Assembly: GCA_964583975.1 (NCBI GenBank)
Contig: CAZOXU010000007.1
Location: forward strand, 11,051-75,050
Length of the DNA: 64,000 nt
Source of the DNA: an uncultured Planctomycetales bacterium
GTDB lineage: Bacteria; Omnitrophota; Gorgyraeia; Zapsychrales; Fredricksoniimonadaceae
Direction of reading: 5' to 3'
The notes beneath the pieces were generated by a model. That model was not told where the DNA came from. It searched no databases and saw only the letters and a list, made by a program, of their open reading frames with translations. The translations under genes were made by a program, and so were the position numbers. The number at the start of each line of letters is the position of its first letter. Position 1 is the stretch's first letter. Positions 612-64,000 of this stretch are shown here, in pieces.

Positions 612-1017
612 CTTTAAGGGTGCTGCTAGAACTTCTTGGCAGGGCAGTGATATTAGCAACATCCATGCCCATGTAAGAAACTTGATTTTCACCATTGCTA
701 TTCTCCTGTGTTTTTATTGGGTAAGCTGGATCCAAGCTCCATTGTCCTGGTTCAATTATCACCAGTTCGTTATGCTCTGGAATCATGACCCCATTAGTCA
801 AATGAGCTGGAACCCTAACTTCCTGCACTATAGGTGCCGTCCAATGATAGTAAGGGAAATTACCACCTTGAAATTCAGCAGCAATATCCTTAATCTGCTC
901 GCTTACTCCCTTCCTATAACCCTCCTGATAAACTTCTTTATTCTGTTGATTCGAGAAAGTTGAACAGCCTGTTAATAAAATCATCAAAATTAGCGGACAG
1001 CTTTTACTTAACTCCAT
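601..1017 (-). CDS. Lipoprotein (lipobox LLTGC), paralog of the TraV-like lipoprotein at 3498-3914
   Basis: Signal peptide plus Cys lipobox. Shares the motif P-I/V-x-x-E-x-x-V...N-x-x-V-I/L...W...IEP-x-x-W with the 138-aa lipoprotein upstream of traC. Start probably at MELSK rather than the ORF-track MLRSIH. Confidence 0.45.
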   Translation of the reverse strand: MELSKSCPLILMILLTGCSTFSNQQNKEVYQEGYRKGVSEQIKDIAAEFQGGNFPYYHWTAPIVQEVRVPAHLTNGVMIPEHNELVIIEPGQWSLDPAYPIKTQENSNGENQVSYMGMDVANITALPRSSSSTLKDDE

Positions 1018-3508
1018 ATGGATACTCCTTAGCACAGATTTTTATCGCCTCTTTAAGATCTCCATCAAAATCTTTAGCCTTATTAAAAAGATATTCATTG
1101 TTCTTTGGCTCACTGTTAGCAGCCCAATATAACCAAGGGTCAGGAATTAAACGAATAATGCCGCTGGAAGAATCTGTAATGACAAAGGCCTCGGAATATT
1201 TTCCCTTAATTGTCTCAACACTTTTAAGAGCATCAATAATTCCACTGGGTAGAGAAAGCCGGTCTTTCATCGTATCAATGAGGCTAGCTTCTTGTTTAAA
1301 GAAAATCTTGTTGGAAGAATTCGCAATAATCGCTAGTCCTGATTCATAGCGGGTCAAATCAGCCAACTCTTGGGTAATAGCTACTACGGAACAACGATAT
1401 TTTCGAAATGTTTTAAAAGCATTGGTAATAAACTCTGAGGTGTTTTTAACCTTTAATAAAGACCAAGCTTCATCAAGCATTAAATATTTTCTCTTTGGCC
1501 TCATTTGCTTATGAGAAACAAAGGTCGTTATAAAGAACATCAAATTTAGCAATACCGCCAACTGCAAATCAGGGTAGGAACTTAAATTAGCAAGTTCAAA
1601 TACAGTAAACTGTCCAGAGACCTGAAATTCATTTACACCATCAAAAAACCTCCCATAAGGCCCCTTGATAGTAAAAGGTGTCAAGCGTAACGCAAGAGTT
1701 GGCCCCATCACTGAATTAATTCCAAACGTATCATTAAATTGACTGTCATTAAGAGTACGGACAACGTCCGAAAGAAAAATCTCCGAATTTATCTTTTGTT
1801 CATAGGTTTTAATGACCGCCTTTTGTAACAATCCCTCTTCTTCTCTACTCAGACGATCACGTTCATCCCCTCCGGATGCCATTTGGGACAACAACATCAT
1901 TAAAAAAGATAAGTTCTCTGGTGTTGGCTCATTAATAAAAGGATTAATTCTTACGGGATGATTTAAATCAAAGTTAATGTATTGCCCCCTGAGAATATTG
2001 TTTAACTTTCTGTAAGATTCTCCTTTATCAAGAACAAAGAAATGAGCCCCCAAACGATCATTTTGCAAAATAAAGTCATTGATAAAAAAACTTTTTCCTG
2101 AACCTGAAGCGCCAATCACAACCCCATGCGGATTAATATTCGAATCAAAGAAATCCAAGAAAACAATCTCACCACGACGGTTTAAATATTGCTGACAAGG
2201 CGTTTTAGTTCCTTTAAATGAACCGTAAACCGGAAGCATATCTGCCGCACTTGAAGCCATAAATCTTTTAGCCCTACGAATAAATTTTTCAAAGTAATCA
2301 TCAAAATTAAGAGGCAAACAAGTCAAAAATAATGATGAACCAATTAGGTCTTCTTTAATACCCTCACAACCCAAACGATTAAGAGTATTAATGATATGGT
2401 TTGCACTTTCTTCAACACGATTTTCAGACCTGTCCGATAAAATAAAATGAAACCGAGCATGAATAATTTTCTGCCCACTTTTAAACAAATCACCCACAGT
2501 CTCGTCCATCTCTTTTTTCTGTTCCACTACCTCTACGCTTTTATCTCCTATCCAATTGTTCTGATGGATAAAAGCAAAACTCTTTTGCATATTCAAATGA
2601 TTCATGGCGTCTTGCAAAGGAGGTATTATAAAATTAACAACTATCATTAAATTAGATGGGATATCCAAAAGACAAAACCTGGTCCCCTCATAAAGTTCAC
2701 GACTAAACATTCCAACTGTTGTATTTAAAGGAAGTTCTTTGAGGCTGACAACGCGCATTAATGTATCTTCCAAATCAAACCCATTAGATGAAGCTTTAGG
2801 AATATTAAATAGAAGCTGATCACGTAAAACTGTTCTCTTACCAACCGAGGGAGCAGACAATAATTTAGAACGCTGTGGATTAAGTACTCTATAAACAAAA
2901 TTGACTAACCCTTGATCACCTAAAACGTGATACTCAATACCTGCAACCTGTAATGCACCTTGAATTAATTCACTGTATTTATCGAATACATCTCTATATT
3001 CATTAAATTCCTTTTGAATGTTCTCATTTATTTCCTTACGAGTTTGTAAAATGTTGACGGTTTTTCTCCAAAATGAAGGATAAATATAGTTAGGGAAAAA
3101 ACGAATTGTAAAATATACATCAATCTTCTTAGGAACAAAGTTATTGTCTTTTTGAATATGTTCAATCTTTCCAGAAGAAAAAACATTAATTCTTGATCCT
3201 TCTTCACAAAAACTATCGTACGTATGTAATCTTTCTTGGATATGCTGATGGCTGCATAAAATAACCTGGCAAGCTAATCTTCCTATTGGTAGACGATTAA
3301 GAACATTCTCCATGTGCAAAGATAAATTCTTTAGAAAATCATCCTCTTTCCCTTCAGTTTCATAAGAACTAATTTGCCAAACCTTCCCCATTGAACCGTC
3401 AGATAAAATAAATACATTGTTTTCATCAGATTCGATATAGGGCAAAAGGTCAGAAAAACAGTACCCTTCTTCGAAGATCTTCTCTATATGCTGTGTCTTA
3501 ATTGCCAT
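1004..3508 (-). CDS. traC: T4SS ATPase TraC/VirB4 family
   Basis: 834 aa, Walker A GASGSGKSFF, Walker B-region LMLDEAWSLL (the DEAW signature of VirB4/TraC/TrbE). Size and position after the traV-like gene as in F. Confidence 0.8.
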   Translation of the reverse strand: MAIKTQHIEKIFEEGYCFSDLLPYIESDENNVFILSDGSMGKVWQISSYETEGKEDDFLKNLSLHMENVLNRLPIGRLACQVILCSHQHIQERLHTYDSFCEEGSRINVFSSGKIEHIQKDNNFVPKKIDVYFTIRFFPNYIYPSFWRKTVNILQTRKEINENIQKEFNEYRDVFDKYSELIQGALQVAGIEYHVLGDQGLVNFVYRVLNPQRSKLLSAPSVGKRTVLRDQLLFNIPKASSNGFDLEDTLMRVVSLKELPLNTTVGMFSRELYEGTRFCLLDIPSNLMIVVNFIIPPLQDAMNHLNMQKSFAFIHQNNWIGDKSVEVVEQKKEMDETVGDLFKSGQKIIHARFHFILSDRSENRVEESANHIINTLNRLGCEGIKEDLIGSSLFLTCLPLNFDDYFEKFIRRAKRFMASSAADMLPVYGSFKGTKTPCQQYLNRRGEIVFLDFFDSNINPHGVVIGASGSGKSFFINDFILQNDRLGAHFFVLDKGESYRKLNNILRGQYINFDLNHPVRINPFINEPTPENLSFLMMLLSQMASGGDERDRLSREEEGLLQKAVIKTYEQKINSEIFLSDVVRTLNDSQFNDTFGINSVMGPTLALRLTPFTIKGPYGRFFDGVNEFQVSGQFTVFELANLSSYPDLQLAVLLNLMFFITTFVSHKQMRPKRKYLMLDEAWSLLKVKNTSEFITNAFKTFRKYRCSVVAITQELADLTRYESGLAIIANSSNKIFFKQEASLIDTMKDRLSLPSGIIDALKSVETIKGKYSEAFVITDSSSGIIRLIPDPWLYWAANSEPKNNEYLFNKAKDFDGDLKEAIKICAKEYPYGVK

Positions 3509-3914
3509 TGTCTTTGGACTCTACTTTTGATGAAACAGGTATAATTACTGGGAGCTTTGTATCCATGATCCTCCCATCCACAAACCATTTAGATGGTTCA
3601 ATCATTAAATAAATCCAATGGCCTGCCACAAGCACATCCGGATTCTCTTCAGATTTCTGATCGGGAATCCATACCTTACGTACAACAGGCTCATTAATCA
3701 CAGGTATGTAAGGCTTGACGTATCCATACGTCTTTTGTTCTTTTAGATTTCTCTCTATATATTGGGAGACATCTTTTTGGGATTGACCAACTGCAGAGGC
3801 ATAAATATCCATCATGCTCTGTTGCTGCATCTTTTCTTTCTTTATACTTTTACTCGATGCGCATCCACTGATGGAAAAGACACAAATTATAATAATTAAA
3901 ATAAACGAAAACAC
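3498..3914 (-). CDS. TraV-like outer-membrane lipoprotein
   Basis: 138 aa, signal peptide with lipobox SISGC. Immediately upstream of traC and translationally overlapping it, matching traV-traC order in F-like systems. Confidence 0.45.
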   Translation of the reverse strand: MFSFILIIIICVFSISGCASSKSIKKEKMQQQSMMDIYASAVGQSQKDVSQYIERNLKEQKTYGYVKPYIPVINEPVVRKVWIPDQKSEENPDVLVAGHWIYLMIEPSKWFVDGRIMDTKLPVIIPVSSKVESKDNGN

Positions 3915-3997: not shown

Positions 3998-4387
3998 TTA
4001 ATGAATACATTCATAATTCTTATTATCTTTTAAACCTTTATCAAAAGTATAGGTCTTAAGATTTCTGGATGCGCCAATTTCTCCAATCAAAGCATCACAA
4101 AACGAAAATCCTTTAAAAGATTTTGATATGGCTAAATGTATAGACGTTTCATATTCAAAATATAGTTGGGGTATTCTTAAAAGATCATCTAACGAATTTA
4201 AAGCATATTCTTTTGATAAACCATATTTCTTAGTTAACACATAATAAACTTCCATCAAAACACCATGACAAATAAAAATCTCTTTGGCTCCATGTCCTTC
4301 AATTAAGGCCTTAGAACTTTCGACCCTTAACGGATCATCTTGCGCAATAATTCTTATTAATATATTTGAATCTAAAGCTATTTTCAT
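3998..4387 (-). CDS. vapC: PIN-domain toxin VapC
   Basis: MKIALDSNILIRI...D...FCDALIGE acidic-residue pattern of PIN nucleases. The 4-nt ATGA overlap with the upstream antitoxin gene is typical of TA pairs. Confidence 0.75.
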   Translation of the reverse strand: MKIALDSNILIRIIAQDDPLRVESSKALIEGHGAKEIFICHGVLMEVYYVLTKKYGLSKEYALNSLDDLLRIPQLYFEYETSIHLAISKSFKGFSFCDALIGEIGASRNLKTYTFDKGLKDNKNYECIH

Positions 4388-4644
4388 ATTTCTGTATGCC
4401 CCCAAGATTCTTCTCTAGCAATTCTAATTTCTTCATCGGTTAATTTCTTTTTTGTTTTACCAGCATATTTCTTAATAAAATCATCAATTGTAAAATGTTC
4501 TATCTTGGGTTTTACTTCCATATGTCCATTCTTTTCTTCAAAAACAATCTGGTCACCTGGATTTAATTTCAAACGAACCATAACTTTTAAAGGAACTGTA
4601 ATTTGTCTCTTCGATGAAATTTTGGCAGCTATTACCATAAACAC
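4384..4644 (-). CDS. vapB: AbrB/MazE/SpoVT-type antitoxin VapB
   Basis: 86 aa. RQITVPLKV...GD swapped-hairpin DNA-binding signature. Precedes vapC with an overlapping stop/start. Confidence 0.7.
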   Translation of the reverse strand: MFMVIAAKISSKRQITVPLKVMVRLKLNPGDQIVFEEKNGHMEVKPKIEHFTIDDFIKKYAGKTKKKLTDEEIRIAREESWGHTEI

Positions 4645-4651
4645 CTCTTTC

Positions 4652-4690
4652 TTTGCTATAAGAACAATTATTCTTTGTTCTTATAGCAAA
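4652..4690. promoter_or_regulatory. Perfect 16-bp inverted repeat TTTGCTATAAGAACAA-N7-TTGTTCTTATAGCAAA immediately upstream of vapB: candidate antitoxin operator
   Basis: Read directly in sequence, 8 nt upstream of the vapB start. Confidence 0.5.
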
Positions 4691-4864
4691 TATACCATAT
4701 CTTCTTCAAAGAGCAAATATTAATATAACTTTTGAGGAATTATTTTGACTTTCTAAAACTTTAAATTCTGGGGAAGAATTTATTTATTGATGAAACTACA
4801 ATTAATATACTTAAATATTTAAAAATGTCAAGCAATTAAATTGACTTAAAATCAATATTACAAA

Positions 4865-5902
4865 TCACCATTTAAATGCAACACCAGTGCGTTGGCATTG
4901 CTTGCAGATGGACATACTGGTACGGCCCTTTGTCTTCATAAGTTCACGAGTAGCTTGAGCAGCAGGACCATTCCAAATTTCCTTAACGCGAGATTGGTTG
5001 GTTGCGTAAGTTGTATATGGTTTAATATTACTCCAGATCACTCCTTCACAACACTGAAGAACATCACCATTGAAATTAACCTGCATCGCCTTCCACAACC
5101 AATCACAAGACATAGGTAACGTTGATGTAGGCAATGGGGTTTCCTTATCTTCTAACCCCCCACGGGGATTGCCCTGACGAAAACTCAGCATCAAATCATT
5201 GTCTTTGCAGAATTGGCGTATCAAAGGAATTTGATGTTCGTTATATTGATAAGTAATCCAATCAATGAGAATAACCGCATGGGATTTTAATTCTTTTTTT
5301 ATGTTAGTTACCATGCGGATATTATTTTTAAGCTTTTCTACTTCCCCATAACGAATTTGAATGCTGTAAATATCTTGAGTGAAGCCGCCTAATTGGATTT
5401 TGATAAAATCAATGCCAGAGGACAGCAAAGCCCGCGCATTTTCTGGAGTAAATAAAAGACCGTTGGTTGAAATCATGGTCATCACCTTACGCTCGGTTGA
5501 GAATTTGACCAAATCAGCTAAATCTTTATATAGGAGTGGTTCGCCATTAGTGTAGAGCACCGCAATCAGCACGTCTTCTTTGATCTGATCGATGATATCC
5601 TTAGCCATTTCAACAGGCATCTTGCCTTTAGATATGGATCCTAAAGAAGGCTGCTCTGGATTGATGTTATAGATCTTGCCCTTAGCATCACGGCAAAATA
5701 AACATCCGGCATTACATTCATTCCACAATTCTAAACTTAAAATAAAAGGTGAAGCTGCTGATATTTTTGTCTTTAAGAAGTACGAAACTGTGCATACAAC
5801 TACATTCCACATCTTACGAAAAGTAATCTTGCCTATCGAAAGTGCTGTAAAAAATAACCGGATTTTTAAAAGGAAATAGTGATTATGCTTTGGGGTTTTC
5901 AT
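4865..5902 (-). CDS. Radical SAM enzyme with C-terminal SPASM domain
   Basis: CNAGCLFC (CxxxCxxC) cluster, C-terminal Cys-rich CCEGV...CKQCQ SPASM-like region. The ORF-track start at 5983 overlaps the GT2 gene, so the true start is probably an internal Met (5902 or 5812). Confidence 0.7.
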   Translation of the reverse strand: MKTPKHNHYFLLKIRLFFTALSIGKITFRKMWNVVVCTVSYFLKTKISAASPFILSLELWNECNAGCLFCRDAKGKIYNINPEQPSLGSISKGKMPVEMAKDIIDQIKEDVLIAVLYTNGEPLLYKDLADLVKFSTERKVMTMISTNGLLFTPENARALLSSGIDFIKIQLGGFTQDIYSIQIRYGEVEKLKNNIRMVTNIKKELKSHAVILIDWITYQYNEHQIPLIRQFCKDNDLMLSFRQGNPRGGLEDKETPLPTSTLPMSCDWLWKAMQVNFNGDVLQCCEGVIWSNIKPYTTYATNQSRVKEIWNGPAAQATRELMKTKGRTSMSICKQCQRTGVAFKW

Positions 5903-6854
5903 CTTTGAATCCATAAACGGAATTGACGATATAGCGTGGCCGACCCTTGCTTTGCTCATGCACTGAATGCAGATATAAACCAATAGCTCCTAAACAAAAC
6001 AACTGTACTGCACTGACAAATAAAATAACAATCATCAAGGCTGTCCATCCAGGGACAGATTTACCTTGCAGCTTCTCTAAGAGAGCATAAACCATTAAAG
6101 CCACATCAACCAAAATGGTCGCGAAACCACAATAAGAAGCAATTTCTAAAGGTACTGAAGAAAAATTAATCAAAGCAGAATTAAGGAAATTTGAAATTGC
6201 TTTAGGGCCTAAAAAAAAGAATTTTGTTTTACCTGCAAAACGAGGTTGTCGCTCATAATAAATAAACGCTTGTTTAAACCCAATGTGAGCTATTAGCCCA
6301 CGAATCCAAGGGCGAGCCTCCTGCATCGTCAAAAGATGATCAACAACCCTCCTTGATAATAGTTTAAAATCACCCGCCTCTCGAGGTATAGTTACTGATG
6401 AATAGCGATTTAAAATAGCATAACAAATACGAGTCAAAAACATTTTAAATGCAGATTCGCCTAAACGTTTATTACGTACCGTGTGGACAACATCAATTTG
6501 ATCCCCTTCGCTCATAGCTGCCAACATCTGTGGAATCAGTTCTGGAGGGTCCTGCAAATCACAATCCATATATACAACAGCATCCCCTTTGGTACGGGCC
6601 AAACCTGCCATCACACAAACAAACACACCAAAAGTACGCGACATAGTGATAATTTTGATATCGTTATGATTTCTGTCTTGATCAATAAGGATTGCTACAG
6701 ACTGATCGGTAGAGCAGTCATCAACAAAAACAAACTCCCAACCAGAGATTTTTTGATTGTTTTTTAAATCTAAAAGCACCTTGCGGGTTCTGGAGATAAA
6801 CTCAGGCAACACATCTGCTTCATTACGGAAAGAGAATACAAAGGATAAAAACAT
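5883..6854 (-). CDS. GT2 polyprenyl-phosphate sugar transferase (GtrB/ArnC/DPM1-like) with C-terminal TM helices
   Basis: VFVDDCSTDQS and DCDLQDPPE motifs of GT-A family 2. Two C-terminal TM segments as in bactoprenol-P glycosyltransferases. Confidence 0.75.
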   Translation of the reverse strand: MFLSFVFSFRNEADVLPEFISRTRKVLLDLKNNQKISGWEFVFVDDCSTDQSVAILIDQDRNHNDIKIITMSRTFGVFVCVMAGLARTKGDAVVYMDCDLQDPPELIPQMLAAMSEGDQIDVVHTVRNKRLGESAFKMFLTRICYAILNRYSSVTIPREAGDFKLLSRRVVDHLLTMQEARPWIRGLIAHIGFKQAFIYYERQPRFAGKTKFFFLGPKAISNFLNSALINFSSVPLEIASYCGFATILVDVALMVYALLEKLQGKSVPGWTALMIVILFVSAVQLFCLGAIGLYLHSVHEQSKGRPRYIVNSVYGFKDENPKA

Positions 6855-6924: not shown

Positions 6925-8040
6925 CTACTTCCTTCTGTTTCCTCTAGCAAGACCAGTAATCGTCACACCTTTTTGAACAATAAAAAATACCGCAGCTCCA
7001 TTCTTAATATGGATAGCTGGAACCATGTCTTCGGCTTGTCTTTGATAATACTCTGAGAGCTTGCCTGCACTTTGAGCTAAGCCAGAAAATGCTGCAGCTT
7101 TACCTGGACTACCAGTCACTTCCTGCGCACTGTCACCTTGTAGACTCTTATGAGTAGTCACCTGACTGTCAGCAATAGCTTGGGCACCACCTGAAACGAA
7201 CCCGCCCATAAAAGAAAGAGCCAGCTGGCGACCTGTGCTGTAAATAATCTGTCCTTTAATACCCAATTCACCTGACTCATCAGTGACATATCCTAATTCC
7301 TGCTCATTCTCAAAGACATACCCGCTAGGCAATACACTTGAAATCGCTACAATTTGAATCAACGCGCGCTGGGAAACTAAGTCTCCGTAAGCCTTACCTA
7401 ACACAAAAGCTCCTTTTAATGGAACGCGTGATTTATTAGGCCCATAAAAAGCTTCATCTAAAGAAATTAACACTGGCAAAGGATTATTCATATCAGCAGC
7501 CGCATAAACACCAGTCAACAGTGTACCTTTACAAAAACTACCAATGGGTAGATAAACCCAGTCTTCTTGATTAGTTGGGGCAATATTAGCGACTGATAAT
7601 TCCAATGTCCTTTGAGAAGAATTCTTAGTCTGATCGTCATCTTGCTCCTCTAAATGGTTATTAAATTCATCAAATCTTTGCTGCATCCTTACTCCTAAAT
7701 CTTGATCAAGCTTAAGAACACTTTGGACAATTTCTTTTTGAGAATTACTCAGATGATCTGCTGAGGTTTGTATCTTCTTAACCTGATTTTCCATATTCTT
7801 AACCCTATCCTCGAAGTCATAATAATTCTTCTCCAAACGTTCTATATATGCCTGCTGCTCTACCCCTCCAACTGAAATACCAATATCTTTAACCACGCTA
7901 GTTTTTACCATTTCTTTATTTTGGGGCTCAACTTTCTGGCTCAGTATTAAAAATACAAAACCAATAATTAAAAAAATAACTACAATTATAATAATGATAG
8001 GTTGCTTCTTAAGGCTATTTCTAAATTCCTGGATTTTCAT
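6925..8040 (-). CDS. traB: TraB/VirB10-like T4SS inner-membrane to outer-membrane bridge protein
   Basis: N-terminal TM, coiled-coil/charged region, C-terminal beta-rich domain (LPIGSFCKGTLLTGVYAAADMNNPLPVL...). Position between traK-like and traV-like genes. Confidence 0.6.
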   Translation of the reverse strand: MKIQEFRNSLKKQPIIIIIVVIFLIIGFVFLILSQKVEPQNKEMVKTSVVKDIGISVGGVEQQAYIERLEKNYYDFEDRVKNMENQVKKIQTSADHLSNSQKEIVQSVLKLDQDLGVRMQQRFDEFNNHLEEQDDDQTKNSSQRTLELSVANIAPTNQEDWVYLPIGSFCKGTLLTGVYAAADMNNPLPVLISLDEAFYGPNKSRVPLKGAFVLGKAYGDLVSQRALIQIVAISSVLPSGYVFENEQELGYVTDESGELGIKGQIIYSTGRQLALSFMGGFVSGGAQAIADSQVTTHKSLQGDSAQEVTGSPGKAAAFSGLAQSAGKLSEYYQRQAEDMVPAIHIKNGAAVFFIVQKGVTITGLARGNRRK

Positions 8041-8728: not shown

Positions 8729-9329
8729 CCATAACCTCCTGATTTACATCGTCAATAATTAAACCGTAGGGATTAAAATCCGTTGGTGGAGTCGGCTTAA
8801 GTCGTATGTGATAAATAGTCCTTTGTAATTTAATCTCTTCCTTACCCATATACACACCTTTATCTCCTTTAATCACCACATTAAAACCTTGCGAATCTTC
8901 GCGTACCTGCGGGTCTTGATTTAATGAAAACAAAGAGGCAATGTTGTTCTCTTTAACCTGCTGAATATCTTTCTTTAATCTGTTGCGTGTTTGATTTAAA
9001 AGCCTCGGCGACATAAAACGTTGAGCCCGCTTATAAACATCCTCTACTGAGGCTGGCGTAAAATTTGTCCAATTAAGTAACCATGAGGCTGAAAACATTA
9101 CCGCTGTCGTTTGAGGAGTATTCTGTGAATAAGCTATACCTGCAGATCCAACGCCTGGCACGTAATAAATTGGCCTAGGTTTTGTAATCATAAAAACTAA
9201 AGCAGCCGTTAAAACCAAAAAACAAAAGCTCATTACCATAAGCATAGCTCCTAACCTGGTATTGAGGAATTCCGATGTAGACCAGCGATCAATGAACTGT
9301 GAACTTTTTGACATAATCGGTTTTTGCAT
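8715..9329 (-). CDS. traE: TraE-like (VirB8 analogue) bitopic T4SS protein
   Basis: Single N-terminal TM then periplasmic domain. C-terminal YHIRLKP...FNPYGLIIDDV resembles the F TraE C-terminus. Synteny supports the call. Confidence 0.5.
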   Translation of the reverse strand: MQKPIMSKSSQFIDRWSTSEFLNTRLGAMLMVMSFCFLVLTAALVFMITKPRPIYYVPGVGSAGIAYSQNTPQTTAVMFSASWLLNWTNFTPASVEDVYKRAQRFMSPRLLNQTRNRLKKDIQQVKENNIASLFSLNQDPQVREDSQGFNVVIKGDKGVYMGKEEIKLQRTIYHIRLKPTPPTDFNPYGLIIDDVNQEVMDDVK

Positions 9330-11274: not shown

Positions 11275-11676
11275 CTAACAAATACCTGCATAAGTTCCTG
11301 TTGCTGTACAAACCCAAGAACCAGCGCTACCTGATGTTCTTGATAATTGAACATAATTGGTACCAGAGGCTTGACGAGAGTTAGTTGCCACAATGAGCAC
11401 TGAACTTCCGCCAGGATTAGTAATGACATAACCCCATTTAGGACTGGAAGCAGCTCCACCCAAAAGACAATTGGTAGGAACGAAATCTTTTCCTTGAAGA
11501 CATCCTTCTACCTGTGTTTTCAAAGAAGAAGCATTTGTTAAAGCTTCAGCTGCTTGTGAACGTTCTACGTTAGCAAATAAATTTGGCAATGCAATAGCTG
11601 CCAAAATACCAAGAATAATCAAGACGACGATAATCTCAATAAGTGTAAAACCTGAATTATTACGTATTTTTCTCAT
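11275..11676 (-). CDS. Type IV prepilin / T2SS major pseudopilin (GspG/PilA-like)
   Basis: MRKIRNNSGFTLIEIIVVLIILGILAAIALP: a class III leader with G/FTLIE prepilin-peptidase site and Glu+5. 133 aa. Confidence 0.85.
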   Translation of the reverse strand: MRKIRNNSGFTLIEIIVVLIILGILAAIALPNLFANVERSQAAEALTNASSLKTQVEGCLQGKDFVPTNCLLGGAASSPKWGYVITNPGGSSVLIVATNSRQASGTNYVQLSRTSGSAGSWVCTATGTYAGIC

Positions 11677-11693: not shown

Positions 11694-13817
11694 TTATTTT
11701 GATAATACCATTTTTAACTTCAACGCCCTTTTAGGATCAACTAAAAAGGCCTGCTTATAAGCATTGTCGGCTAATTCATATTGAGCACTAAAAAATAAAA
11801 TTTCTCGCAATCTGATAAGAAGTTCAAAACTTTTACTTTTACTTATCAGTTCAGTTGCAATCTGTTTTGCTTTTTCTATATTATTAGCTCTCAAATATAT
11901 TCTCACTTTATACAACTCAACTACATCATGAACAAAATAATTCTCTTTAACTTGATCTAAAACGTCTATTGCTTTTTGATACTGCTTTTGCTCTTCCAAT
12001 ATACTTATTTTGTATATCGGAATATCTATGGAAAATATATCATACTTTTGAGCTTCGTCAAGGTAAGATAAAGCTTTTTTATAGTCCCCTTGAAACCTAT
12101 GTATGACAGCATAAATGTCTTCTTTTTTGTCACTAAACTGTGGGCTTAAATTAATTTTTTCTGAACTGCTTATTTTATGAAATTTATTTAAAATGTTACC
12201 TTCATGATCTATGTATCCAAAACGTTCTAAATCCTCAAATAAAGCCTCTACATCAACCTCAATTTCATTAAAATCTGAAGCCTTAATTTTCCCTCCTTCA
12301 AGCATAGATATAGTAGCTAAACCCAAATATGCCGACAAAAATGTGGGGTCCGCATCTAACAATTTATTATAATAAAACTTAGCTTCCTTATAATCCCCCT
12401 TCTGAACATATAAAGATCCTAAATTACCGAAAACAAAAAGCTTTCTTTGGGTTTCAAGAAGAGATTTAAAACAATTAATTGAATTGTCAATATTACTAAA
12501 ATTTTGCAAGTATGAACAATAACCAATAGCAGGAAAATCAAAGCCTGGAGTTTCAGCAACCCATTGAGTATAGTAAGAAGCAGGATTATTGAATAATAAA
12601 TTTTGTTTATATGAGAATAAAAACAAAAATGTAGAAAGCAAAACTAACAAGACATAAGGAAACCAGCTTATAAGAAATTTTGTTTTATGTATAAACCATG
12701 AAATAATGGCAAAAAACCCAATATTTGTATAAAAAATCCAATGTGGTTCAAAATAAAAGAATCCCTGACCAAGTATATTATAAGAAGCAGGGGCAGATAA
12801 AACAAAACCAAATGAAAACATCAACCAAAAAAACAACATCTTCTTGTTTTCTCTATAAAACACTACAGAGAAATATAAAAAAACACATAAATAAAAAACA
12901 AACACCCATATCCATTTCCCAGCCATGTATTTATCAACCGACGTCACCCATTGAAGAAAAATATTGTCTGGATAGAATAATTTTGTAATAACCCATCTAA
13001 TTATCCTGGCGTATGCCGCGCAAGCTTCATACCAAGTGATTTTAAAACCTCCAAAAACAGCACCTAAAAGCCCCCCGGAAGTCATGGACAACTTTGAACG
13101 AAAATATAGATAGAATAAAAAGACGCTAAAGAATCCAGAACAAAGAAAAAAACGAAACCTATTAATGGTTATGGTAGCTAAAAAATAAAACAATAAAATT
13201 AGAGGAAATATAAACGCTAACTCATGAAATAAAAGTGTAAAAAGAAAAAGTACCAAATAAAGAAGATACTGGCTCCAATGAAAAAGACCTCTCTCCTTTG
13301 AAATCTTATTAATATAAATAAAGATTAAATTAAAAAATACAATTTGAAGAGACAGATGAAACGCGGTCTTATAATTAACAGCTAAACCATTAAATGGATG
13401 CAAAAGATACAGCAATGCGGATGAGCTAGATATAAAGCGGCTAGAAGTAATTGAAAAAACAAACAGAAAAATACTGTAACAAGCCAAAACGAAAGAAACC
13501 AAACTAACAAATTGATAGGCTACACTATTACTATTAAGCAAAGAAGATTCTATACTAAACAAAAAATGAGTCAGCGGACGATAATACCCCCACCGGTTCT
13601 CAAAATTCTCAAAACCAACACGATCTGTTAAATTAGGAATAAAATCATAAGAAAAGAATTGGGGATTCTGCTTTCTTACATTTAAATAATGATCTGCATC
13701 ATCTATAAAAAATGGATTCTTAAAACTATCCCAGAAATTAAAGACACCAACTAGAATAAGAAGAAAAAAGAAAAGAATCTTGAAATGTTTATTAAAGAAA
13801 TTGGGCAAGCTAAACAT
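11694..13817 (-). CDS. GT-C fold membrane glycosyltransferase (about 11 TM) with C-terminal TPR domain
   Basis: FFIDDADHY acidic motif in the first extracytoplasmic loop, many TM helices over about 430 aa, then TPR-like repeats (GDYKEAKFYYNKLLDADP...). Sits between gspF and the pilin gene. Confidence 0.5.
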   Translation of the reverse strand: MFSLPNFFNKHFKILFFFLLILVGVFNFWDSFKNPFFIDDADHYLNVRKQNPQFFSYDFIPNLTDRVGFENFENRWGYYRPLTHFLFSIESSLLNSNSVAYQFVSLVSFVLACYSIFLFVFSITSSRFISSSSALLYLLHPFNGLAVNYKTAFHLSLQIVFFNLIFIYINKISKERGLFHWSQYLLYLVLFLFTLLFHELAFIFPLILLFYFLATITINRFRFFLCSGFFSVFLFYLYFRSKLSMTSGGLLGAVFGGFKITWYEACAAYARIIRWVITKLFYPDNIFLQWVTSVDKYMAGKWIWVFVFYLCVFLYFSVVFYRENKKMLFFWLMFSFGFVLSAPASYNILGQGFFYFEPHWIFYTNIGFFAIISWFIHKTKFLISWFPYVLLVLLSTFLFLFSYKQNLLFNNPASYYTQWVAETPGFDFPAIGYCSYLQNFSNIDNSINCFKSLLETQRKLFVFGNLGSLYVQKGDYKEAKFYYNKLLDADPTFLSAYLGLATISMLEGGKIKASDFNEIEVDVEALFEDLERFGYIDHEGNILNKFHKISSSEKINLSPQFSDKKEDIYAVIHRFQGDYKKALSYLDEAQKYDIFSIDIPIYKISILEEQKQYQKAIDVLDQVKENYFVHDVVELYKVRIYLRANNIEKAKQIATELISKSKSFELLIRLREILFFSAQYELADNAYKQAFLVDPKRALKLKMVLSK

Positions 13818-22476: not shown

Positions 22477-23139
22477 CTAGGTGTTTTCTTGGGAAGTATT
22501 CAGCTGAGACATTTGAACCATAATATGTACTGTTTGAGCCATAGCAATTTGCAAATCAGCAACGATGTTATTAATCCTTGATACACAAAAGCTATACACA
22601 GAAAAACTCAAAATACAAACCATCAATCCCGCCACACTCGAGAACAAGGCCTGCCAAACACCTAAGGTCACATCACCTACACTTAAAGGATTTAACACGT
22701 TGGAACGAATCTGAATTGAATGAAAGACTATTGTTAAACCTATTATAGTTCCCAATAAACCTATCAATACCGATAAATTAATAATGAAATACAAAATGCT
22801 CATTCGTTCTTTCAAACGATAAGCCTCATAAACAAAAACTTCTTCGGCTGCTGTTTTAATAACATCTGCCGAACTACCAAACTTTAATAAGGCTGCTTTA
22901 AAAATACGACTAAAAGGACTATCATAAGATTCACAAATGCTCAATGTATGTTTAATGCTTTCTTTTTGTAGTGAATTCATTAAATTGATCCTATGAATTT
23001 TTCCAAGTTTTTCTAAAGAAGACAAAAAAACAAGTCTTTCAATCCCCACAGCTAAGGCGACAACAGACATCAAAATAAGCGGCCACATCATCGGTCCGCC
23101 TCTTAAAATTAATTGCCAAACATTAAATATTGTTACCAT
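22477..23139 (-). CDS. exbB: ExbB/TolQ/MotA-family proton channel
   Basis: 220 aa, three TM helices, conserved C-terminal TM pattern. Confidence 0.75.
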   Translation of the reverse strand: MVTIFNVWQLILRGGPMMWPLILMSVVALAVGIERLVFLSSLEKLGKIHRINLMNSLQKESIKHTLSICESYDSPFSRIFKAALLKFGSSADVIKTAAEEVFVYEAYRLKERMSILYFIINLSVLIGLLGTIIGLTIVFHSIQIRSNVLNPLSVGDVTLGVWQALFSSVAGLMVCILSFSVYSFCVSRINNIVADLQIAMAQTVHIMVQMSQLNTSQENT

Positions 23140-25598
23140 TATTTTCTCCCTCCCACATTAGCAGCCAGCCAATCTAAACGCTCTTGGGCAAATTTAGATT
23201 CCTCAGAGTTTAATTGAACAATCTTCTGATAGGTGACCCGCGCTCCATCCCAATCCTTACGATCTTCATAAATCCTGGCAACTCTCAAGTAGGCCTTCGC
23301 CGCCCAAGATGATTGCTTGGCAGACACAGAAGAAACTTTTAAATACTCGCTAACAGCCTCATCTAACCGCCCCATGAGTTCATAGGTGTCTCCAATATCA
23401 AACAAAATCTCAGCATTACTAATCTTTCCTTTAGAAGCATCTACTTCCAAAGCTTTGCGATAGGTTTCAATTTCTTTATCATAACTTTGATTATTACGAT
23501 AAAGTTGGGCTATTTTTAAATACGATTCTCTGGCCAACTCTGGAGACTCAGCAGCAATAGCTTCATAAGCCTGCGCAGCTTTTTGAGAATCAAATTCTTT
23601 GGCAAATATGCCTGCAATAGCTAACTTGACCTTAGAAAAAAGCACCGCGTCTGTATTAGAGATTTGCTTATACCGAGCTAGGGCTTGATCATATAACCCT
23701 TGAATTTCAAAGGCCTGTCCCATTTCATAATTAATCTGTTCAATACCTGCATGCTCAGGAAAATGATCTAGAATTTGCTGATAATACGTCAATGATTGGG
23801 TATAATCGCCATTCTTTAAATAAAACTGAGCCAACCACAATGAAGCTTCAAACTCAGCCTCGGTTTTAGGATATTTATAAACAATTAATTTAAATCGTTT
23901 AACGGCCTCTTTAATTTGTTTTAATTCATACTGACATTTAGCAATACCAATATCTGAATTCTTGGCCACATTGGTATCTTCTGGATAAAGCCGTAGAATC
24001 TTTTGAAATAACTTTAATGCCTCCTCTGGCTGTTTTAAATTTAAATAAGACAAAGCTAAAACATAATTAGCTTCTGGCAAAAAGCTAGCTGGACGAGAAT
24101 AATTCTTTAAGAATTCGTCCATTTTTATAGCAGCGGCTTTAAAATTACCGCTTCGAAAAGCAGCCAATCCCAAATAATAATTAACGTCCTCCAAATAACG
24201 ACTATTGGGGAAATTAGCTTTTAAGTGTTCAAAAGCAACAACCGATGCTTTAATCTTTCCGATCTTTAAAAGAGCAATGGCCTGACGATGTTCAACATAA
24301 TCAAACATTGTGTTATCTGGATATTTCTTCAATATTCCATCATAAATATCCACCGCTTCACTCATTTTCCCAGCATCGGCTAAAGCATCGGCCATCTGAA
24401 GCAAAGCATTGACCTTCACATCCACTTTGTCTGTAGTATCAGCAATTTTTTGGAAACGCTCTTGAGCCATATTCAAGCTATTTAACTTAGCATAGGTCCA
24501 TGCTATTCCTAAATTAGCTTTTAAAGCTAACTCTTGATTCTCTCCCCGATCAATCACATAGCTGTAGTCTCCCAAAGCATCTTCAAATTTCTTAAGCATG
24601 AAATTGACGTTGGCCCTTCCTAAATGAGCCTCAAGGTAATGTGTTCCTCGCGGATAATTCTTAATTAAGTCATTATAAACTTCGACGGCAGATTGAAAAT
24701 CTTCTTTCTCCACAAAAATATTGGCTTTGACAAGCAAAAGATCATCATCAGGAATCCCTTTAGCTTTACAAAACTCTTGTCCATCCTTAAGAACTTTTTG
24801 AGCTTCTGTGAATTTTTTTAACTTCAAACAACTCCATATCTTTCCTGTATAAGCTGTAAAAACCAATTTAGTATCAGTGGATTTCAAAGCCTTATCATAA
24901 TAGGTAAGCGCATTTTCATAGTCATCCATATAATAATAAGTATCCGCCACATTCAAATAAACATCCCATAGATGCTCTGATTGAGGATATTTAGTCAGAT
25001 AACGCATGAATTTACTTAAAGCCCCGTGATAATCCTCTGTATCATAAAGTGATTGCGCCAGCTTCAAAGTAGCATCTTCTGCCAATTGATGTTTTGGAAA
25101 ATCCTTCACCAATTGATCAAATAGGTCTCTAGCTTGAGCGTATTTCTTCTGATCAAAGTAAGACCATCCTAAAGAATAATATGCTTGAGGCAAATAAGCT
25201 GATTGGGGATAATTATCGATAAGTTCTTGGTAGCGAGCCTGGGCTTGAGGATAATTATTCATTTTTAAATACACCTCTCCCAGCCAAAAAATCAAAAGTT
25301 CTTTATTATCAAACGTATCATCCAAACTATTAAATGCATTTAGCGCCTCTGGAAATTTATTCTTAAAGAAATAACACTGTCCCAACAAAAATTTAGCTTG
25401 AGACAATTTAGGATGAGAAGGAAAATCCTGCATCAACTGCTCTAAATAACGAATAGCAACATCATAAAAGCCATCGTCAAAAGCTCTCAGAGCAGTAGCA
25501 TACAATTCATCTCTTTGGCTTTGGGCATAAACTGCACTCGAAGAAGAAAAACAAAATAAAAGACATAAACAAAAACCCAGCCATTTAATTTTTCGCAT
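23139..25598 (-). CDS. Large secreted TPR-repeat protein (>15 TPR units)
   Basis: Signal peptide MRKIKWLGFCLCLLFCFSSSSAVYA. Repeated Y/F-x-x-A-x-x-x-Y motifs throughout 819 aa. Confidence 0.85.
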   Translation of the reverse strand: MRKIKWLGFCLCLLFCFSSSSAVYAQSQRDELYATALRAFDDGFYDVAIRYLEQLMQDFPSHPKLSQAKFLLGQCYFFKNKFPEALNAFNSLDDTFDNKELLIFWLGEVYLKMNNYPQAQARYQELIDNYPQSAYLPQAYYSLGWSYFDQKKYAQARDLFDQLVKDFPKHQLAEDATLKLAQSLYDTEDYHGALSKFMRYLTKYPQSEHLWDVYLNVADTYYYMDDYENALTYYDKALKSTDTKLVFTAYTGKIWSCLKLKKFTEAQKVLKDGQEFCKAKGIPDDDLLLVKANIFVEKEDFQSAVEVYNDLIKNYPRGTHYLEAHLGRANVNFMLKKFEDALGDYSYVIDRGENQELALKANLGIAWTYAKLNSLNMAQERFQKIADTTDKVDVKVNALLQMADALADAGKMSEAVDIYDGILKKYPDNTMFDYVEHRQAIALLKIGKIKASVVAFEHLKANFPNSRYLEDVNYYLGLAAFRSGNFKAAAIKMDEFLKNYSRPASFLPEANYVLALSYLNLKQPEEALKLFQKILRLYPEDTNVAKNSDIGIAKCQYELKQIKEAVKRFKLIVYKYPKTEAEFEASLWLAQFYLKNGDYTQSLTYYQQILDHFPEHAGIEQINYEMGQAFEIQGLYDQALARYKQISNTDAVLFSKVKLAIAGIFAKEFDSQKAAQAYEAIAAESPELARESYLKIAQLYRNNQSYDKEIETYRKALEVDASKGKISNAEILFDIGDTYELMGRLDEAVSEYLKVSSVSAKQSSWAAKAYLRVARIYEDRKDWDGARVTYQKIVQLNSEESKFAQERLDWLAANVGGRK

Positions 25599-25601
25599 AA
25601 G

Positions 25602-28400
25602 TTAACGGTCTCTTTCCATAAAAGTTTTTAAATATACTCCAGTATGTGAAGAACGATTCTTAAGGATTTCCTCAACACTACCACTAAAAACAAGCTCTCC
25701 ACCCTTATCTCCACCATCTGGACCTAAATCAATAATATAATCAGCCGATTTAATAACATCGAGATTATGCTCAATTACAAGGACAGTATTGCCTCGATCA
25801 ACCAATCTTTGCAACACCTTCAGAAGCTTATCTACATCAGCAAAATGTAATCCTGTGGTTGGCTCATCTAGGATATAAAACGTGCTTCCTGTGGCAGGTT
25901 TACATAATTCAGTAGCTAATTTGACTCTTTGAGCCTCACCACCGGAAAGTGTTGTTGCTGATTGCCCCAAGCGAATATAACCTAAACCAACATCATGAAG
26001 TGTTTCTAAAACAATCTTGATTTTGGGTATATTATCAAATAAAGCGATTGCTTCTTCAACCGATAAGTTTAGAACATCCGCAATATTCTTACCCTTAAAC
26101 TCTACTTCCAAGGTTTGTTCTGTAAATCTTTTCCCATGGCAAACCTCACATTGAACATAAACATCTGGCAAGAAATGCATTTCTATTTTCTTAATACCAT
26201 CTCCACCACAAGCCTCACAACGACCTCCTTTAACATTAAAACTAAACCTGCCTGGTTTGTAACCACGCATTTTAGATTCAGGCAACTGAGAGAATAAATC
26301 ACGAATATGAGAAAACATTCCGGTATAGGTGGCAGGATTCGATCGTGGGGTCCGCCCAATTGGAGATTGATCTACAACAATCACTTTATCGATATGTTGC
26401 AACCCCTCTATCTTTTTATGCTGACCCGGCTTTTCTTTAGTACCATGCAATTTATGGCTAATAGCTTTGTATAAAATCTCTTCTACCAAGGTTGACTTGC
26501 CAGACCCAGAAACCCCTGTCACACAAACAAATGTCCCTAAGGGTATTAATACATCAATATTTTTTAGATTGTGTTCTTTGGCTCCTATGATTTTAAGAAA
26601 CTTGACATCAACAATGTCTCGTCGTTTATCTGGTGTATGAATTTTAAAAGAACCATTCAAATATTGTCCTGTAAGCGAATCATTACACTTAACCAAGCCT
26701 TTGACAGCACCCGCATACATAATCTTACCACCATGTTCCCCTGCTCCTGGCCCTAAATCAATTACATAATCAGCGCGGCGAATCGTATCTTCATCATGCT
26801 CCACAACAATAAGCGTATTTCCCAAATCTCTTAAAGCATGTAGTGTTGCCAACAATCGATCATTATCTTTTTGATGTAAACCAATGCTTGGTTCATCAAG
26901 AACATAAATTACACCCACTAAACCAGAACCAACCTGGGTGGCCAATCGAATGCGTTCAGCTTCACCACCGGAAAGCGTAGAACTCCGCCTATCCAAACTT
27001 AAATATTCCAAGCCAACATTGATACAAAAATCTAAACGACGATTAATTTCTTTTAATATCTCAGCACTAATGATTTGTCTATCTTTAGAAAGTTTTAAAC
27101 CATCAAAGAAAACTTTTGCTTCCTTGATAGAGAGACATGTCACATCCGTAATATTACTGTTTCCCACCTTAACTGAAAGCGACTCTTTTTTAAGACGCTT
27201 GCCTTCGCAAGCTGGACAAGAAGACACAGACATAAAAGAAGAAATCTCTTCCTTTAACCAATCACTATCTGTCTCTTTAAATAATCGTTCAAGGTAACCC
27301 ACTACCCCCTCAAATTGCCGTCCCCAAACCTCATCCTCAGAACCATAAAAAATAATATTCTTAAATTTCTTGTCTAATTGGCTAAATGGCAAACGAGGAT
27401 CCACATCGTAGGCATTTGCTATCTCTCGAAGCACTGCCCGATAATACATCATGTAACCACGTTTCCCTTTTTTCCAAGGAACAATTGCAGTTGTCCAAGG
27501 TTTAGAAGAATCAGGGACCAAGGCCTCAGGATCTATTTCCATCTTGGTTCCTAAACCATTACATTCGACACAAGCGCCATAAGGAGAATTAAACGAAAAA
27601 ATACGCGGTTCTATTTCACTTAAAGAAGTGCCACAGTCTATACAAGCATAGCGCTCGCTAAAAGTCTGGTCAGGTCGACTGCCATTGAAATCAATAACTA
27701 CAATCCCCTCTCCGATCTTTAAAGCTGTTTCTACAGACTCAAAGAGACGCTTACGAATATCTTCTCTAATACTAAGACGATCAACAACAGCTTCAATATG
27801 GTGAATTTTGTATTTATCTAGCTTAATATTATCTTGTGTTTCATAAATCTTACCATCCACTCGAAGTCGGGCAAAACCAGACTTCACAACCTGCGCTTGA
27901 ATATTTCGATACTCTCCCTTGCGACCACGAATTAAAGGAGCCAGAACATTGATCTTTGTTGCTTCTGGCAAGCTTAAAATCTGATTAACAATTTGTTGAA
28001 CACTTTGCTGTTCAATCTTCTTTCCACAGGAATAACAATATGGTTCACCAATACGAGCAAACAAAAGACGCAAATAATCATAAATCTCTGTCTGAGTTGC
28101 CACTGTTGATCGAGGATTACGGCTGGTTGTTTTTTGTTCAATGGAAATAGTAGGCGACAGTCCTTCAATGTGTTCGACCTGGGGTTTTTGCATCTGGTCT
28201 AAAAACTGTCGGGCATAGGCTGAAAGGCTTTCGACATAACGTCGCTGCCCTTCGGCATAAATAGTATCAAAAGCTAAAGAAGATTTACCTGAACCACTTA
28301 AACCCGTCACAACCACAAATTGATTACGCGGAATGGTTAAATCAATATCTTTAAGATTATGTTCCTTAGCCCCACGAATAATAATAGAGTCTGATTTCAT
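25602..28400 (-). CDS. uvrA: Excinuclease ABC subunit A
   Basis: 932 aa. Two ABC ATPase modules ([23 protein letters not shown]). Zn-finger Cys clusters. Confidence 0.95.
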
Positions 28401-28445
28401 AGCCGTTTATTTTATATAAAAGACAACCCCTGTACCATAGAAAAG

Positions 28446-28473
28446 TGAAGGGTCGGGAATAATCCCGACCCTT
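28446..28473 (-). terminator. Hairpin GAAGGGTCGGG-AATAA-TCCCGACCCTTC downstream of the Lys-rich protein gene
   Basis: Perfect 11-bp stem followed on the minus strand by a T-rich tract. Confidence 0.5.
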
Positions 28474-28562
28474 CATCCCGAGGAAAAATGACGAGGGATC
28501 TACGAACTTAAGATCCTTCGGCAGCTGCCTCAGGATAATTTGCTGATTAACAGCAAATTAAA

Positions 28563-28862
28563 CTATTTGCGCTTTGCTGTCTTCTTTTTAGAAGATTTTT
28601 TCGCAGAAGACTTCTTTGCAGAAGACTTCTTGCGTGTACCGCCGCGCACCATCTTAGCACAGGAGACGTCTCCTTGTTTATCGATGAAATAAAGATACCC
28701 TTCTTCTCTTTTGACTCCGACCTTGGCGACTTTCTTGGTTGAACCACCTTTGCTGCCACCTCGGGCCATTTTAGCAGCAGAGATATCTCCCTGCTTGTCT
28801 AAGAAATACAGGTAACCCTTTTCTTTCTTAACTCCTACTTTAGCGACTTTTTTAGATGCCAT
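28563..28862 (-). CDS. Small basic protein with tandem about 39-aa duplication and Lys/Ser/Ala-rich tail (histone H1-like, nucleoid-associated?)
   Basis: KKVAKVGVKKEKGYLYFLDKQGDISAAKMARGG repeated as KKVAKVGVKREEGYLYFIDKQGDVSCAKMVRGG, then KKSSAKKSSAKKSSKKKTAKRK. Confidence 0.5.
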   Translation of the reverse strand: MASKKVAKVGVKKEKGYLYFLDKQGDISAAKMARGGSKGGSTKKVAKVGVKREEGYLYFIDKQGDVSCAKMVRGGTRKKSSAKKSSAKKSSKKKTAKRK

Positions 28863-28912
28863 AACGTGTTCCTCCTTTCTTTGATTTATTTTATGCTACG
28901 GTACTTCTTGCT

Positions 28913-32163: not shown

Positions 32164-32209
32164 ACTTTCTCCAATAAATGTACGGGCAAGACTACCTCGC
32201 CCTCTACGG

Positions 32210-32929: not shown

Positions 32930-32967
32930 GCGATTTCCTTTTATTGTATGCCAAAGGCAGATCAGCC

Positions 32968-33861: not shown

Positions 33862-33902
33862 CTTGTTCCTTTATTGTAAGGGCGAGGTTACCTCGACCCT
33901 AC

Positions 33903-34748: not shown

Positions 34749-34749
34749 A

Positions 34750-37375: not shown

Positions 37376-37383
37376 AGGTCTCC

Positions 37384-38547: not shown

Positions 38548-38564
38548 AACATTGCTCTCCTAAA

Positions 38565-57380: not shown

Positions 57381-57381
57381 A

Positions 57382-61092: not shown

Positions 61093-61142
61093 TTTTATTT
61101 CCAATTGATTGACATCCCCTTTTTAAAATTAGATAATCACTT

Positions 61143-62894: not shown

Positions 62895-62895
62895 A

Positions 62896-63987: not shown

Positions 63988-64000
63988 AACACTACTTAAT

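Follow-up and report, generated by a model that had tools for sequence, protein, structure and literature searches.

A GtrB-type glycosyltransferase and radical-SAM pair, with a VapBC module, between traB and traV of an Omnitrophota chromosome

Three-component extracytoplasmic glycosylation is known from GtrA-GtrB-GtrC, CsbB-GtcA-YfhO, and ArnC-ArnE/F-ArnT, systems in which the GtrB-type protein is the cytoplasmic component. F-type conjugative type IV secretion systems (T4SSs) share a gene block that runs traA-L-E-K-B-(P/trbD/trbG)-V-(R)-C, and in the F system the traB-traV interval is likewise a variable slot. Here, we describe a 64-kb chromosome segment of a Candidatus Omnitrophota metagenome-assembled genome (contig CAZOXU010000007.1; “the window” always means this whole stretch) in which a GtrB-type family 2 glycosyltransferase (GT2), a radical S-adenosylmethionine (SAM) enzyme, and the toxin-antitoxin module VapBC lie between F-like traB and traV genes. 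The glycosyltransferase (positions 5883-6854) and the radical-SAM enzyme (4865-5902) are together referred to as “the pair.”

Two unrelated additions probably account for this arrangement: a resident GT2-radical-SAM pair, with a role in sugar-lipid chemistry of the cell envelope, that was relocated to the traB-traV junction in one shallow lineage, and a VapBC module that followed. An earlier note on this DNA had proposed that the pair is functionally tied to the T4SS. The comparative data speak against such a tie, as related tra loci exist without the insert, the pair occupies many unrelated chromosomal positions, and one relative has ~73 kb between it and the tra genes.

The traB-traV junction here and in relatives

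All genes between position 601 and ~49,400 of the window are encoded on the minus strand (window open reading frames, ORFs). In the order of transcription, TraB (6925-8040) is followed after 70 nt by the glycosyltransferase (323 aa), the 3′ end of which overlaps the start of the radical-SAM gene by 20 nt; after a further 220 nt come VapB (4384-4644, 86 aa) and VapC (3998-4405), and then, 83 nt downstream, TraV (3498-3914) and TraC (1004-3508). The earlier note was right to place all four ORFs here on this strand, and wrong in having the starts of the two enzymes overlap. The start of the radical-SAM gene at 5902 is that of public gene call P0001 (345 aa); the ORF itself spans 4865-5983. Among the flanking genes, the VirB10/TrbI-like TraB matches Pfam TrbI (6e-22) and NCBIfam TraB (4e-23, a score far under the 504-bit equivalog cut-off), the TraV lipoprotein matches Pfam TraV (1.5e-4) and is 49-63% identical to the TraV that follows TraB in relatives, and TraC is recognized by both Pfam and NCBIfam.

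A metagenome-assembled genome may contain chimeras of assembly or binning, but we regard such an origin of the arrangement as extremely unlikely. An independent Logan contig (L001, from SRR12487046) spans TraB-GT2-radical-SAM at 100% identity, which rules out an assembly artefact, and a European Nucleotide Archive (ENA) contig from another sample carries the pair together with a TraV-sized gene and a TraC gene.

Related loci were collected by scanning species-representative genomes with TraC (nine loci) and metagenome contigs with TraB (80 loci, 72 of them containing both TraB and TraV). TraB directly abuts TraV in L008, L010, L013, and L014, that is, in four of the five species-representative loci that hold both genes, and the two are adjacent in all 72 metagenomic loci, with aligned segments −19 to +17 nt apart. 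At E ≤ 1e-4, no homologue of the glycosyltransferase, the radical-SAM enzyme, VapB, or VapC was found in any of the 80 metagenomic tra loci, and even the closest of them (L026 and L085, 72-73% TraB identity) have no insert. The same insert, which the earlier note had suggested looking for in relatives, is therefore not a normal feature of homologous tra loci. In the fifth species-representative locus, L007, which comes from the closest such genome, ~0.7 kb separates TraB from TraV and is filled by one unrelated ORF of 155 aa (8850-9317 of that locus) with no convincing family match; the junction has thus accepted insertions more than once in this clade.

Only one relative has the pair at the tra position. 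It is the ENA contig of P0002 (ERZ27296333, 6581 bp), which encodes a 90%-identical radical-SAM enzyme and for which the gene table alone gives the order GT2, radical-SAM, 204 nt, a TraV-sized gene of 138 aa without a Pfam match on record, and a TraC_F_IV gene, with no VapBC. In the same table, TraC is called at 510 aa and is followed by genes of 127 and 121 aa and a HicAB pair. The short TraC call could reflect decay of the T4SS with the pair intact, or frameshift errors.

Because the single relative with the pair at the tra position lacks VapBC, we regard the module as a separate and later insertion downstream of the pair, and its low GC content and low GC at third codon positions (GC3), its own promoter-like site, its palindrome, and its probable ATGA overlap all agree with this. 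The GC and GC3 values are 0.31 and 0.21 for vapB, and 0.29 and 0.20 for vapC. The best promoter match in the region, a sigma-70-like TTGACA-16-TATATT (11 of 12 positions), lies upstream of vapB on the minus strand (4804-4831); it is suggestive only, with 11 promoter-like sites found in the region against 13.7 expected from shuffles. Directly upstream of the vapB start, a perfect 16-nt inverted repeat (TTTGCTATAAGAACAA / TTGTTCTTATAGCAAA; 4652-4690) is a candidate autoregulatory operator. It is also the sole significant feature of its kind, since a search for flanking repeats that might mark a mobile-element insertion gave only short, chance-level matches. The VapC ORF opens at a TTG (4405); its translation points to the ATG at 4387 as the likely start, in which case there is an ATGA overlap with the vapB stop.

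The module itself is ordinary. VapC matches Pfam PIN (4.5e-10; 40.6 vs. 23.6 bits) and VapB the NCBIfam AbrB domain (4.7e-7; 29.4 vs. 28.3 bits), with a Pfam MazE_antitoxin match (4.9e-5) that, at 23.6 bits, stays under the cut-off of 24.7. A PIN toxin and an AbrB-type antitoxin, encoded by overlapping genes with the antitoxin first and a palindrome upstream, are what one expects of a type II VapBC module, and nothing here is unusual; neither protein reaches any NCBIfam equivalog cut-off.

The pair elsewhere in Omnitrophota

The radical-SAM enzyme belongs to a compact family. A word-indexed search returned 162 matches of 49-100% identity, and an exhaustive profile search of 1.84 billion representatives returned 128 at E ≤ 1e-30, ~45 of which stand clearly above a plateau near 150 bits. 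All named homologues come from Candidatus Omnitrophota, as do most of the named tra loci; the remaining homologues carry generic radical-SAM labels only.

The context of the pair was inspected at eleven further places. In 10 of these, the radical-SAM gene has a GtrB-like GT2 gene immediately before it, usually overlapping it; the exception is L004 (one gene between). Only one of the eleven contexts is tra-related. The two genes directly adjoin in L002/L003, L005, the P0057 contigs, L015/L016, L017, the P0005 contig, L018, and L099. Across Omnitrophota the pair persists at 49-90% radical-SAM identity. It has at least nine non-tra contexts, where large polytopic membrane proteins are its typical neighbors. 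Several of these resemble GT-C enzymes, and they include PMT_2-like, DUF2079, TMEM260_N, and weakly YfhO-like proteins.

The settings vary widely. In L002/L003 the pair is near MetH, glutaredoxin, and a PMT_2-like protein, and directly upstream of it are a 705-aa membrane protein with tetratricopeptide repeats (TPR) and a Cys-rich secreted protein with (GSST)n repeats. In L015/L016 it is found among PMT_2, DUF2079, and TMEM260_N-type GT-C proteins, an epimerase, UbiA, an FAD oxidase, and MetH, and L004, L005, the P0057 contigs, L017, and the P0005 contig place it in other chromosomal settings. In L018 the pair and a 517-aa membrane protein separate DapB from an aminotransferase gene. The L099 cassette, in which genes for a TPR protein, a methyltransferase, and two B12-radical-SAM proteins come after the pair, is flanked by UvrA and by a small gene that follows AspDH.

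L018 and L099 are collinear, gene for gene, with window positions 23,139-38,559 at 39-90% identity, and the corresponding sites in the window are empty: the L099 slot before UvrA at 28401-28562 and the L018 slot between DapB and the aminotransferase gene at 32164-32209. The first of these empty sites holds a strong GC-rich hairpin (GAAGGGTCGGGAATAATCCCGACCCTTC). Within ~30 kb of otherwise conserved backbone, the pair is found at three alternative slots, and no repeats or recombinase genes were seen. On a single contig, JBGAJA010000004.1, the tra operon (L007) and the pair (L002) are ~73 kb apart.

Sequence identity to relatives is 60-74% for the glycosyltransferase and 74-84% for the radical-SAM enzyme, compared with 63-90% for housekeeping neighbors, and the GC and GC3 of the pair are typical for the window (GC3 0.32-0.39). 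These values identify it as a resident, vertically inherited pair, the position of which drifts within a conserved backbone. A foreign composition of the pair, considered as a candidate, was rejected, as only VapBC deviates from the window. The earlier note thought that its proposal would be undone if homologous loci showed an unrelated recent insert with its own promoter and terminator and a different codon usage. The comparison bears out most of this, as homologous tra loci lack the insert, but the codon usage of the pair is not foreign: these are native genes that moved. No intergenic terminator-like site bounds them, and promoter-like sites are no commoner than in shuffled sequence. No paralogue of the pair exists within the window.

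Several relatives carry more than the two genes. In L099 (9013-16673) and the P0057 contigs the pair has further genes attached, for a TPR protein, a Methyltransf_24 protein, and B12-binding radical-SAM enzymes (one or two), and in P0136 a B12-radical-SAM domain is fused to this radical-SAM enzyme, all of which suggests a larger, multi-radical-SAM glycan-tailoring cassette in some of them. The secreted protein of L002 (7896-9002, plus strand; 368 aa) lies directly upstream of the pair and downstream of the 705-aa protein. It has ~35 GSST repeats, its C-terminal domain is rich in Cys, and it looks like a substrate of mucin-type O-glycosylation. Its gene was split or missed by the gene caller, and a spurious gene was called on the opposite strand within the repeat. 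In L015 (16615-20038), an NAD-dependent epimerase, a UbiA prenyltransferase, and a protein of FAD/amine-oxidase type adjoin the GT-C genes (TMEM260_N, PMT_2, and DUF2079) and the pair, a gene set that resembles decaprenyl-phosphoryl-arabinose-type pathways feeding GT-C enzymes.

The two enzymes and possible users of their product

Judged by its sequence, the GT2 protein is a polyprenyl-phosphate glycosyltransferase. Its catalytic domain matches Pfam Glycos_transf_2 (PF00535) at 4.7e-22 (79.1 bits vs. a cut-off of 23.3), and the protein aligns over its full length with Synechocystis GtrB sll0501 (PDB 5ekp; E 1e-61, residues 3-316 of 323, both C-terminal helices included); ArnC is matched at 3e-29 in the same PDB search. 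The motifs MDCDLQDPPE (DxD) and AGDFKLL (GDF) align with IDADLQDPPE and TGDFRLM of 5ekp, and hydrophobic segments 236-260 and 265-296 correspond to the two membrane helices that follow the catalytic domain. The best NCBIfam matches are PgfS (2e-58; 198 vs. 500 bits) and ArnC (1e-33; 117 vs. 529 bits), both under their equivalog cut-offs. Full-length GtrB homology, the two motifs, and the two C-terminal helices are shared with polyisoprenyl-phosphate glycosyltransferases of the GtrB/ArnC/CsbB/PgfS type.

As in the three-component systems, the GT2 gene in relatives adjoins large polytopic proteins, several of them GT-C-like (PMT_2, DUF2079, TMEM260_N, and weakly YfhO). However, the window protein falls under every NCBIfam equivalog cut-off, no GtrA-type flippase was recognized among the scanned window ORFs, and the enzyme is coupled to a radical-SAM partner that is no part of the described systems. 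A full-text literature search, with relevance judged by title and abstract, returned nothing relevant on radical SAM together with GtrB or polyprenol/undecaprenyl phosphate.

The partner is a member of the radical-SAM superfamily, with a CX3CX2C motif in a partial TIM barrel and matches to Pfam Radical_SAM (4.1e-13) and SPASM (1.1e-9; 38.8 vs. 21.5 bits). The earlier note's identifications of VapBC, a radical-SAM/SPASM-type enzyme, and a GtrB-like polyprenyl-phosphate GT2 with a membrane anchor were correct by Pfam, NCBIfam, and PDB comparison, and the term “SPASM” calls for some care: although the Pfam score is above its cut-off, the seven-Cys motif is incomplete. The invariant cysteines are C266, C284/C285, C333, and C336, plus C232; of the SPASM motif only C266...G279-X4-C284/C285 and C333-X2-C336 are conserved, with no CX2CX5CX3C block. 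The C-terminal domain looks twitch-like, akin to the single-cluster twitch domain of BtrN. The enzyme has neither the full SPASM domain with two auxiliary clusters nor the close homology that would make it an anaerobic sulfatase-maturating enzyme (anSME) or AslB.

The best structural neighbors include the sugar-tailoring enzymes BtrN, a 2-deoxy-scyllo-inosamine dehydrogenase; DesII, a TDP-4-amino-4,6-dideoxyglucose deaminase; and BlsE, a cytosylglucuronate decarboxylase. Sequence similarity to these three is marginal (E 1e-4 to 2e-4), however, and peptide maturases score almost as well; the family also has its own conserved N-terminal two-helix extension, a ~25-residue insert after the cluster loop, and two extra invariant Cys residues. 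Among more remote homologues there are fusions to two GT2 domains or to a methyltransferase. A fusion of GT2 with radical-SAM was sought in the close family, where only radical-SAM-radical-SAM and B12-radical-SAM-radical-SAM fusions occur; the protein with two GT2 domains and radical-SAM/SPASM is a distant relative (130 bits).

We favor a role in glycan tailoring, because there is no sign of a precursor peptide or of a recognition element (RRE) for one, because fusions to GT2, methyltransferase, and B12-radical-SAM domains occur, and because the GtrB partner is constant. That the enzyme matures a ribosomally synthesized and post-translationally modified peptide (RiPP) or a protein, in the manner of sactipeptide, SuiB, or anSME enzymes, with the GT2 glycosylating the same peptide or protein, is very unlikely. 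The N-terminus consists, in the structure model inspected by eye, of two helices only, unlike the winged-helix RRE domain. The short precursor-peptide ORF that the earlier note recommended looking for did not emerge either, as the small ORFs upstream of the pair differ between loci and, by eye, share no evident similarity. In addition, the second auxiliary-cluster motif CX2CX5CX3C is absent, and GtrB-type enzymes, to which ours aligns over its full length, are established as a family to act on polyprenyl phosphate, not on peptides. Modification of a lipid (the polyprenyl carrier, or a membrane lipid then glycosylated by the GT2), as by Tes/GDGT-MAS or calditol synthase, has several points in its favor: GDGT-MAS is the best PDB sequence match of the radical-SAM enzyme (E 3e-5), NCBIfam Tes is matched at 9e-11, the partner is a membrane-embedded GT2, and the L015 neighbors include UbiA and a phytoene-desaturase-like oxidase. 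We nevertheless hold it to be distinctly unlikely.

In the glycan-tailoring scheme that we prefer, the GT2 would act at the inner membrane face, loading polyprenyl phosphate with a sugar taken from a nucleotide sugar, and the radical-SAM enzyme would tailor that sugar by radical chemistry of the oxidation, epimerization, deoxygenation, or decarboxylation type, its substrate being either the nucleotide-sugar donor or the lipid-linked product. Once flipped, this sugar-lipid would serve GT-C glycosyltransferases that face the periplasm and decorate envelope proteins or glycans. Omnitrophota genomes hold the pair at shifting positions, with the traB-traV junction its place in this shallow lineage, and an apparently self-regulated VapBC cassette inserted later, downstream of it.

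Candidate users of such a sugar are encoded in the window. The gene of a 707-aa polytopic membrane protein with C-terminal TPR and a predicted GT-C membrane fold (11694-13817, minus strand) is immediately upstream of a type IV pilin gene (11275-11676, minus strand), and a distant counterpart (26% identity) is in the same position in L007. Pseudomonas aeruginosa offers a parallel in the pilin O-glycosylation enzymes encoded beside pilA (TfpO/PilO, and TfpW with polyprenyl-P-D-arabinofuranose): here, too, a polytopic predicted GT-C protein stands beside the type IV pilin gene, and a polyprenyl-P-sugar synthase is encoded in the same gene array. However, the window protein has a TMTC-like architecture (GT-C plus TPR), the likeness is one of position and predicted fold, and the pairing of GT2-radical-SAM with the 707-aa protein is positional only and absent in relatives. 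Glycosylation of the pilin through a lipid-linked sugar is possible. The earlier note's idea of a lipid-linked donor for pilin fits the GT-C/TPR protein beside the pilin gene, but it does not depend on the tra position; pilin glycosylation would hold equally were the pair far from the locus, and the traB-traV position therefore gains no special meaning from it.

A second candidate is a 583-aa PMT_2-like, putative GT-C membrane protein (61143-62894, plus strand) that adjoins MetH and glutaredoxin. Its PMT_2 match (1.5e-5) is, at 25.7 bits, just under the Pfam cut-off of 26.1, and it is 39% identical to a 574-aa protein encoded ~2.3 kb upstream of the pair in L015. In both L002 and L015 the pair is within ~5-9 kb of MetH among GT-C-like genes. 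Window positions 57063-64000 hold glutaredoxin, MetH, the 583-aa protein, and, on the opposite strand from 62896 to beyond 63987, a polytopic protein 29% identical to a 653-aa protein of L004 that is itself like the TMEM260_N-type proteins of L015. A second copy of the pair just beyond the window end, near MetH, is possible.

The host locus and the meaning of position

The window is chromosomal in its gene content, with housekeeping genes for UvrA, PanC, HPPK, lysine and arginine biosynthesis, ribosomal proteins S9 and L13, MetH, and glutathione synthesis. Its F-type subset comprises a 392-aa membrane protein with a faint TraG_N match, a VirB2/TrbC-like (TraA-like) pilin, TraL, TraE, TraK, TraB, TraV, and TraC. 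The core genes TraA, L, E, K, B, V, and C are recognized by Pfam, and TraC, TraB, TraE, and TraK also by NCBIfam, with all NCBIfam tra matches under their equivalog cut-offs. Upstream of this block is a type IV pilus cluster (PilMN, PilO, a secretin, PilB, PilC, the 707-aa protein, and the type IV pilin); TraC is followed by a lipoprotein and by a second secretin, the gene of which continues past the window end, and in L007 by a lipoprotein, a secretin, and PilB/PilC. Neither in the window, which ends just after TraC, nor in 22.5 kb of L007 did we see TraW/U/N/F/H/G, a relaxase, or a coupling protein.

The gene order TraA-like, TraL, E, K, B, V, C is that of the F-type conjugative block, but the locus is chromosomal, with a type IV pilus cluster before it and lipoprotein, secretin, and PilB/PilC-like genes after it, and its Omnitrophota relatives normally have a tight traB-traV junction. 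The “T4SS operon” of the earlier note is thus accurate as to the F-like TraA-L-E-K-B-V-C subset, and less so in that these genes are fused to type IV pilus and secretin genes and do not form a plasmid conjugation operon. The hybrid locus (window positions 1-21029, minus strand) is conserved in L007, L011, L013, L023, and many of L019-L098, with the same gene order in more than 80 loci and PilB/PilC-like genes further downstream in L007 and L011. A remark in a preprint (bioRxiv 10.1101/2023.11.21.568195) describes an Omnitrophota secretion system of more than 10 subunits, with homologues of type II secretion systems and T4SSs, that adjoins giant genes; the hybrid locus may be the same system. 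A term search of the Omnitrophota literature found, in the material it returned, nothing specific on an F-like T4SS/type IV pilus hybrid locus or on GT2-radical-SAM.

How much, then, should be read into the position of the pair? Several points weigh against our reading of it as a relocated resident. Only 70 nt lie between traB and GT2 and 83 nt between vapC and traV, and the coding strand of the traB-traV region has no intergenic terminator-like site, for which reasons the pair is probably co-transcribed with the T4SS genes; its co-option in this lineage, whether regulatory or functional, is possible, and such co-transcription may equally be without functional meaning. The GT-C/TPR protein that adjoins the pilin gene is only 5 kb upstream. 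Our survey of the pair covered only about a dozen contexts, and the window is 64 kb of a 91.8-kb contig, so that a second copy elsewhere in the genome is possible.

The strongest form of the opposing case, a tailoring module dedicated to the secretion/pilus machine (to a TraA-like pilin, the type IV pilin, or a substrate) and recruited into its operon, draws on much of the same evidence: the common strand, the short gaps to traB and traV without a terminator-like site, the predicted GT-C/TPR protein whose gene, in the same array, immediately precedes that of the type IV pilin, and an arrangement kept in the P0002 relative at 90% radical-SAM identity. We judge it unlikely all the same, given that such genes are missing from 72 of 72 metagenomic and four of five species-representative loci (the fifth, L007, having only its unrelated 155-aa ORF), that at least nine non-tra contexts keep the pair, and that one genome has the same tra locus, with its own GT-C/TPR and pilin genes, ~73 kb from the pair. 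Even the P0002 relative, as far as its gene table goes, has a 510-aa TraC and short genes that may indicate decay next to an intact pair. A further proposal, on which we are doubtful without dismissing it, is that the pair, its two genes apparently coupled in translation, supplies a fourth, radical-chemistry component of extracytoplasmic glycosylation, serving protein O-glycosylation by the many GT-C/TPR enzymes of Omnitrophota and co-expressed in this lineage with the T4SS/pilus machine, the pilin being one target among others.

It is important to remember that in compact genomes with long same-strand gene arrays, operon position is weak evidence of shared function. As a tailoring island dedicated to the T4SS, the locus has little import, since the comparative data describe a lineage-specific relocation and an ordinary toxin-antitoxin insertion. 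The hybrid F-like T4SS and type IV pilus locus, widely conserved in Omnitrophota, retains some interest of its own, second to that of the pair. Omnitrophota is an uncultured phylum of ultra-small, possibly predatory bacteria, and within it the coupling of GtrB to a radical-SAM enzyme is tight and widespread; no characterized counterpart was found in the literature searched. This coupling suggests an undescribed modification of lipid-linked sugars, one that could shape the cell surface for contact with a host.

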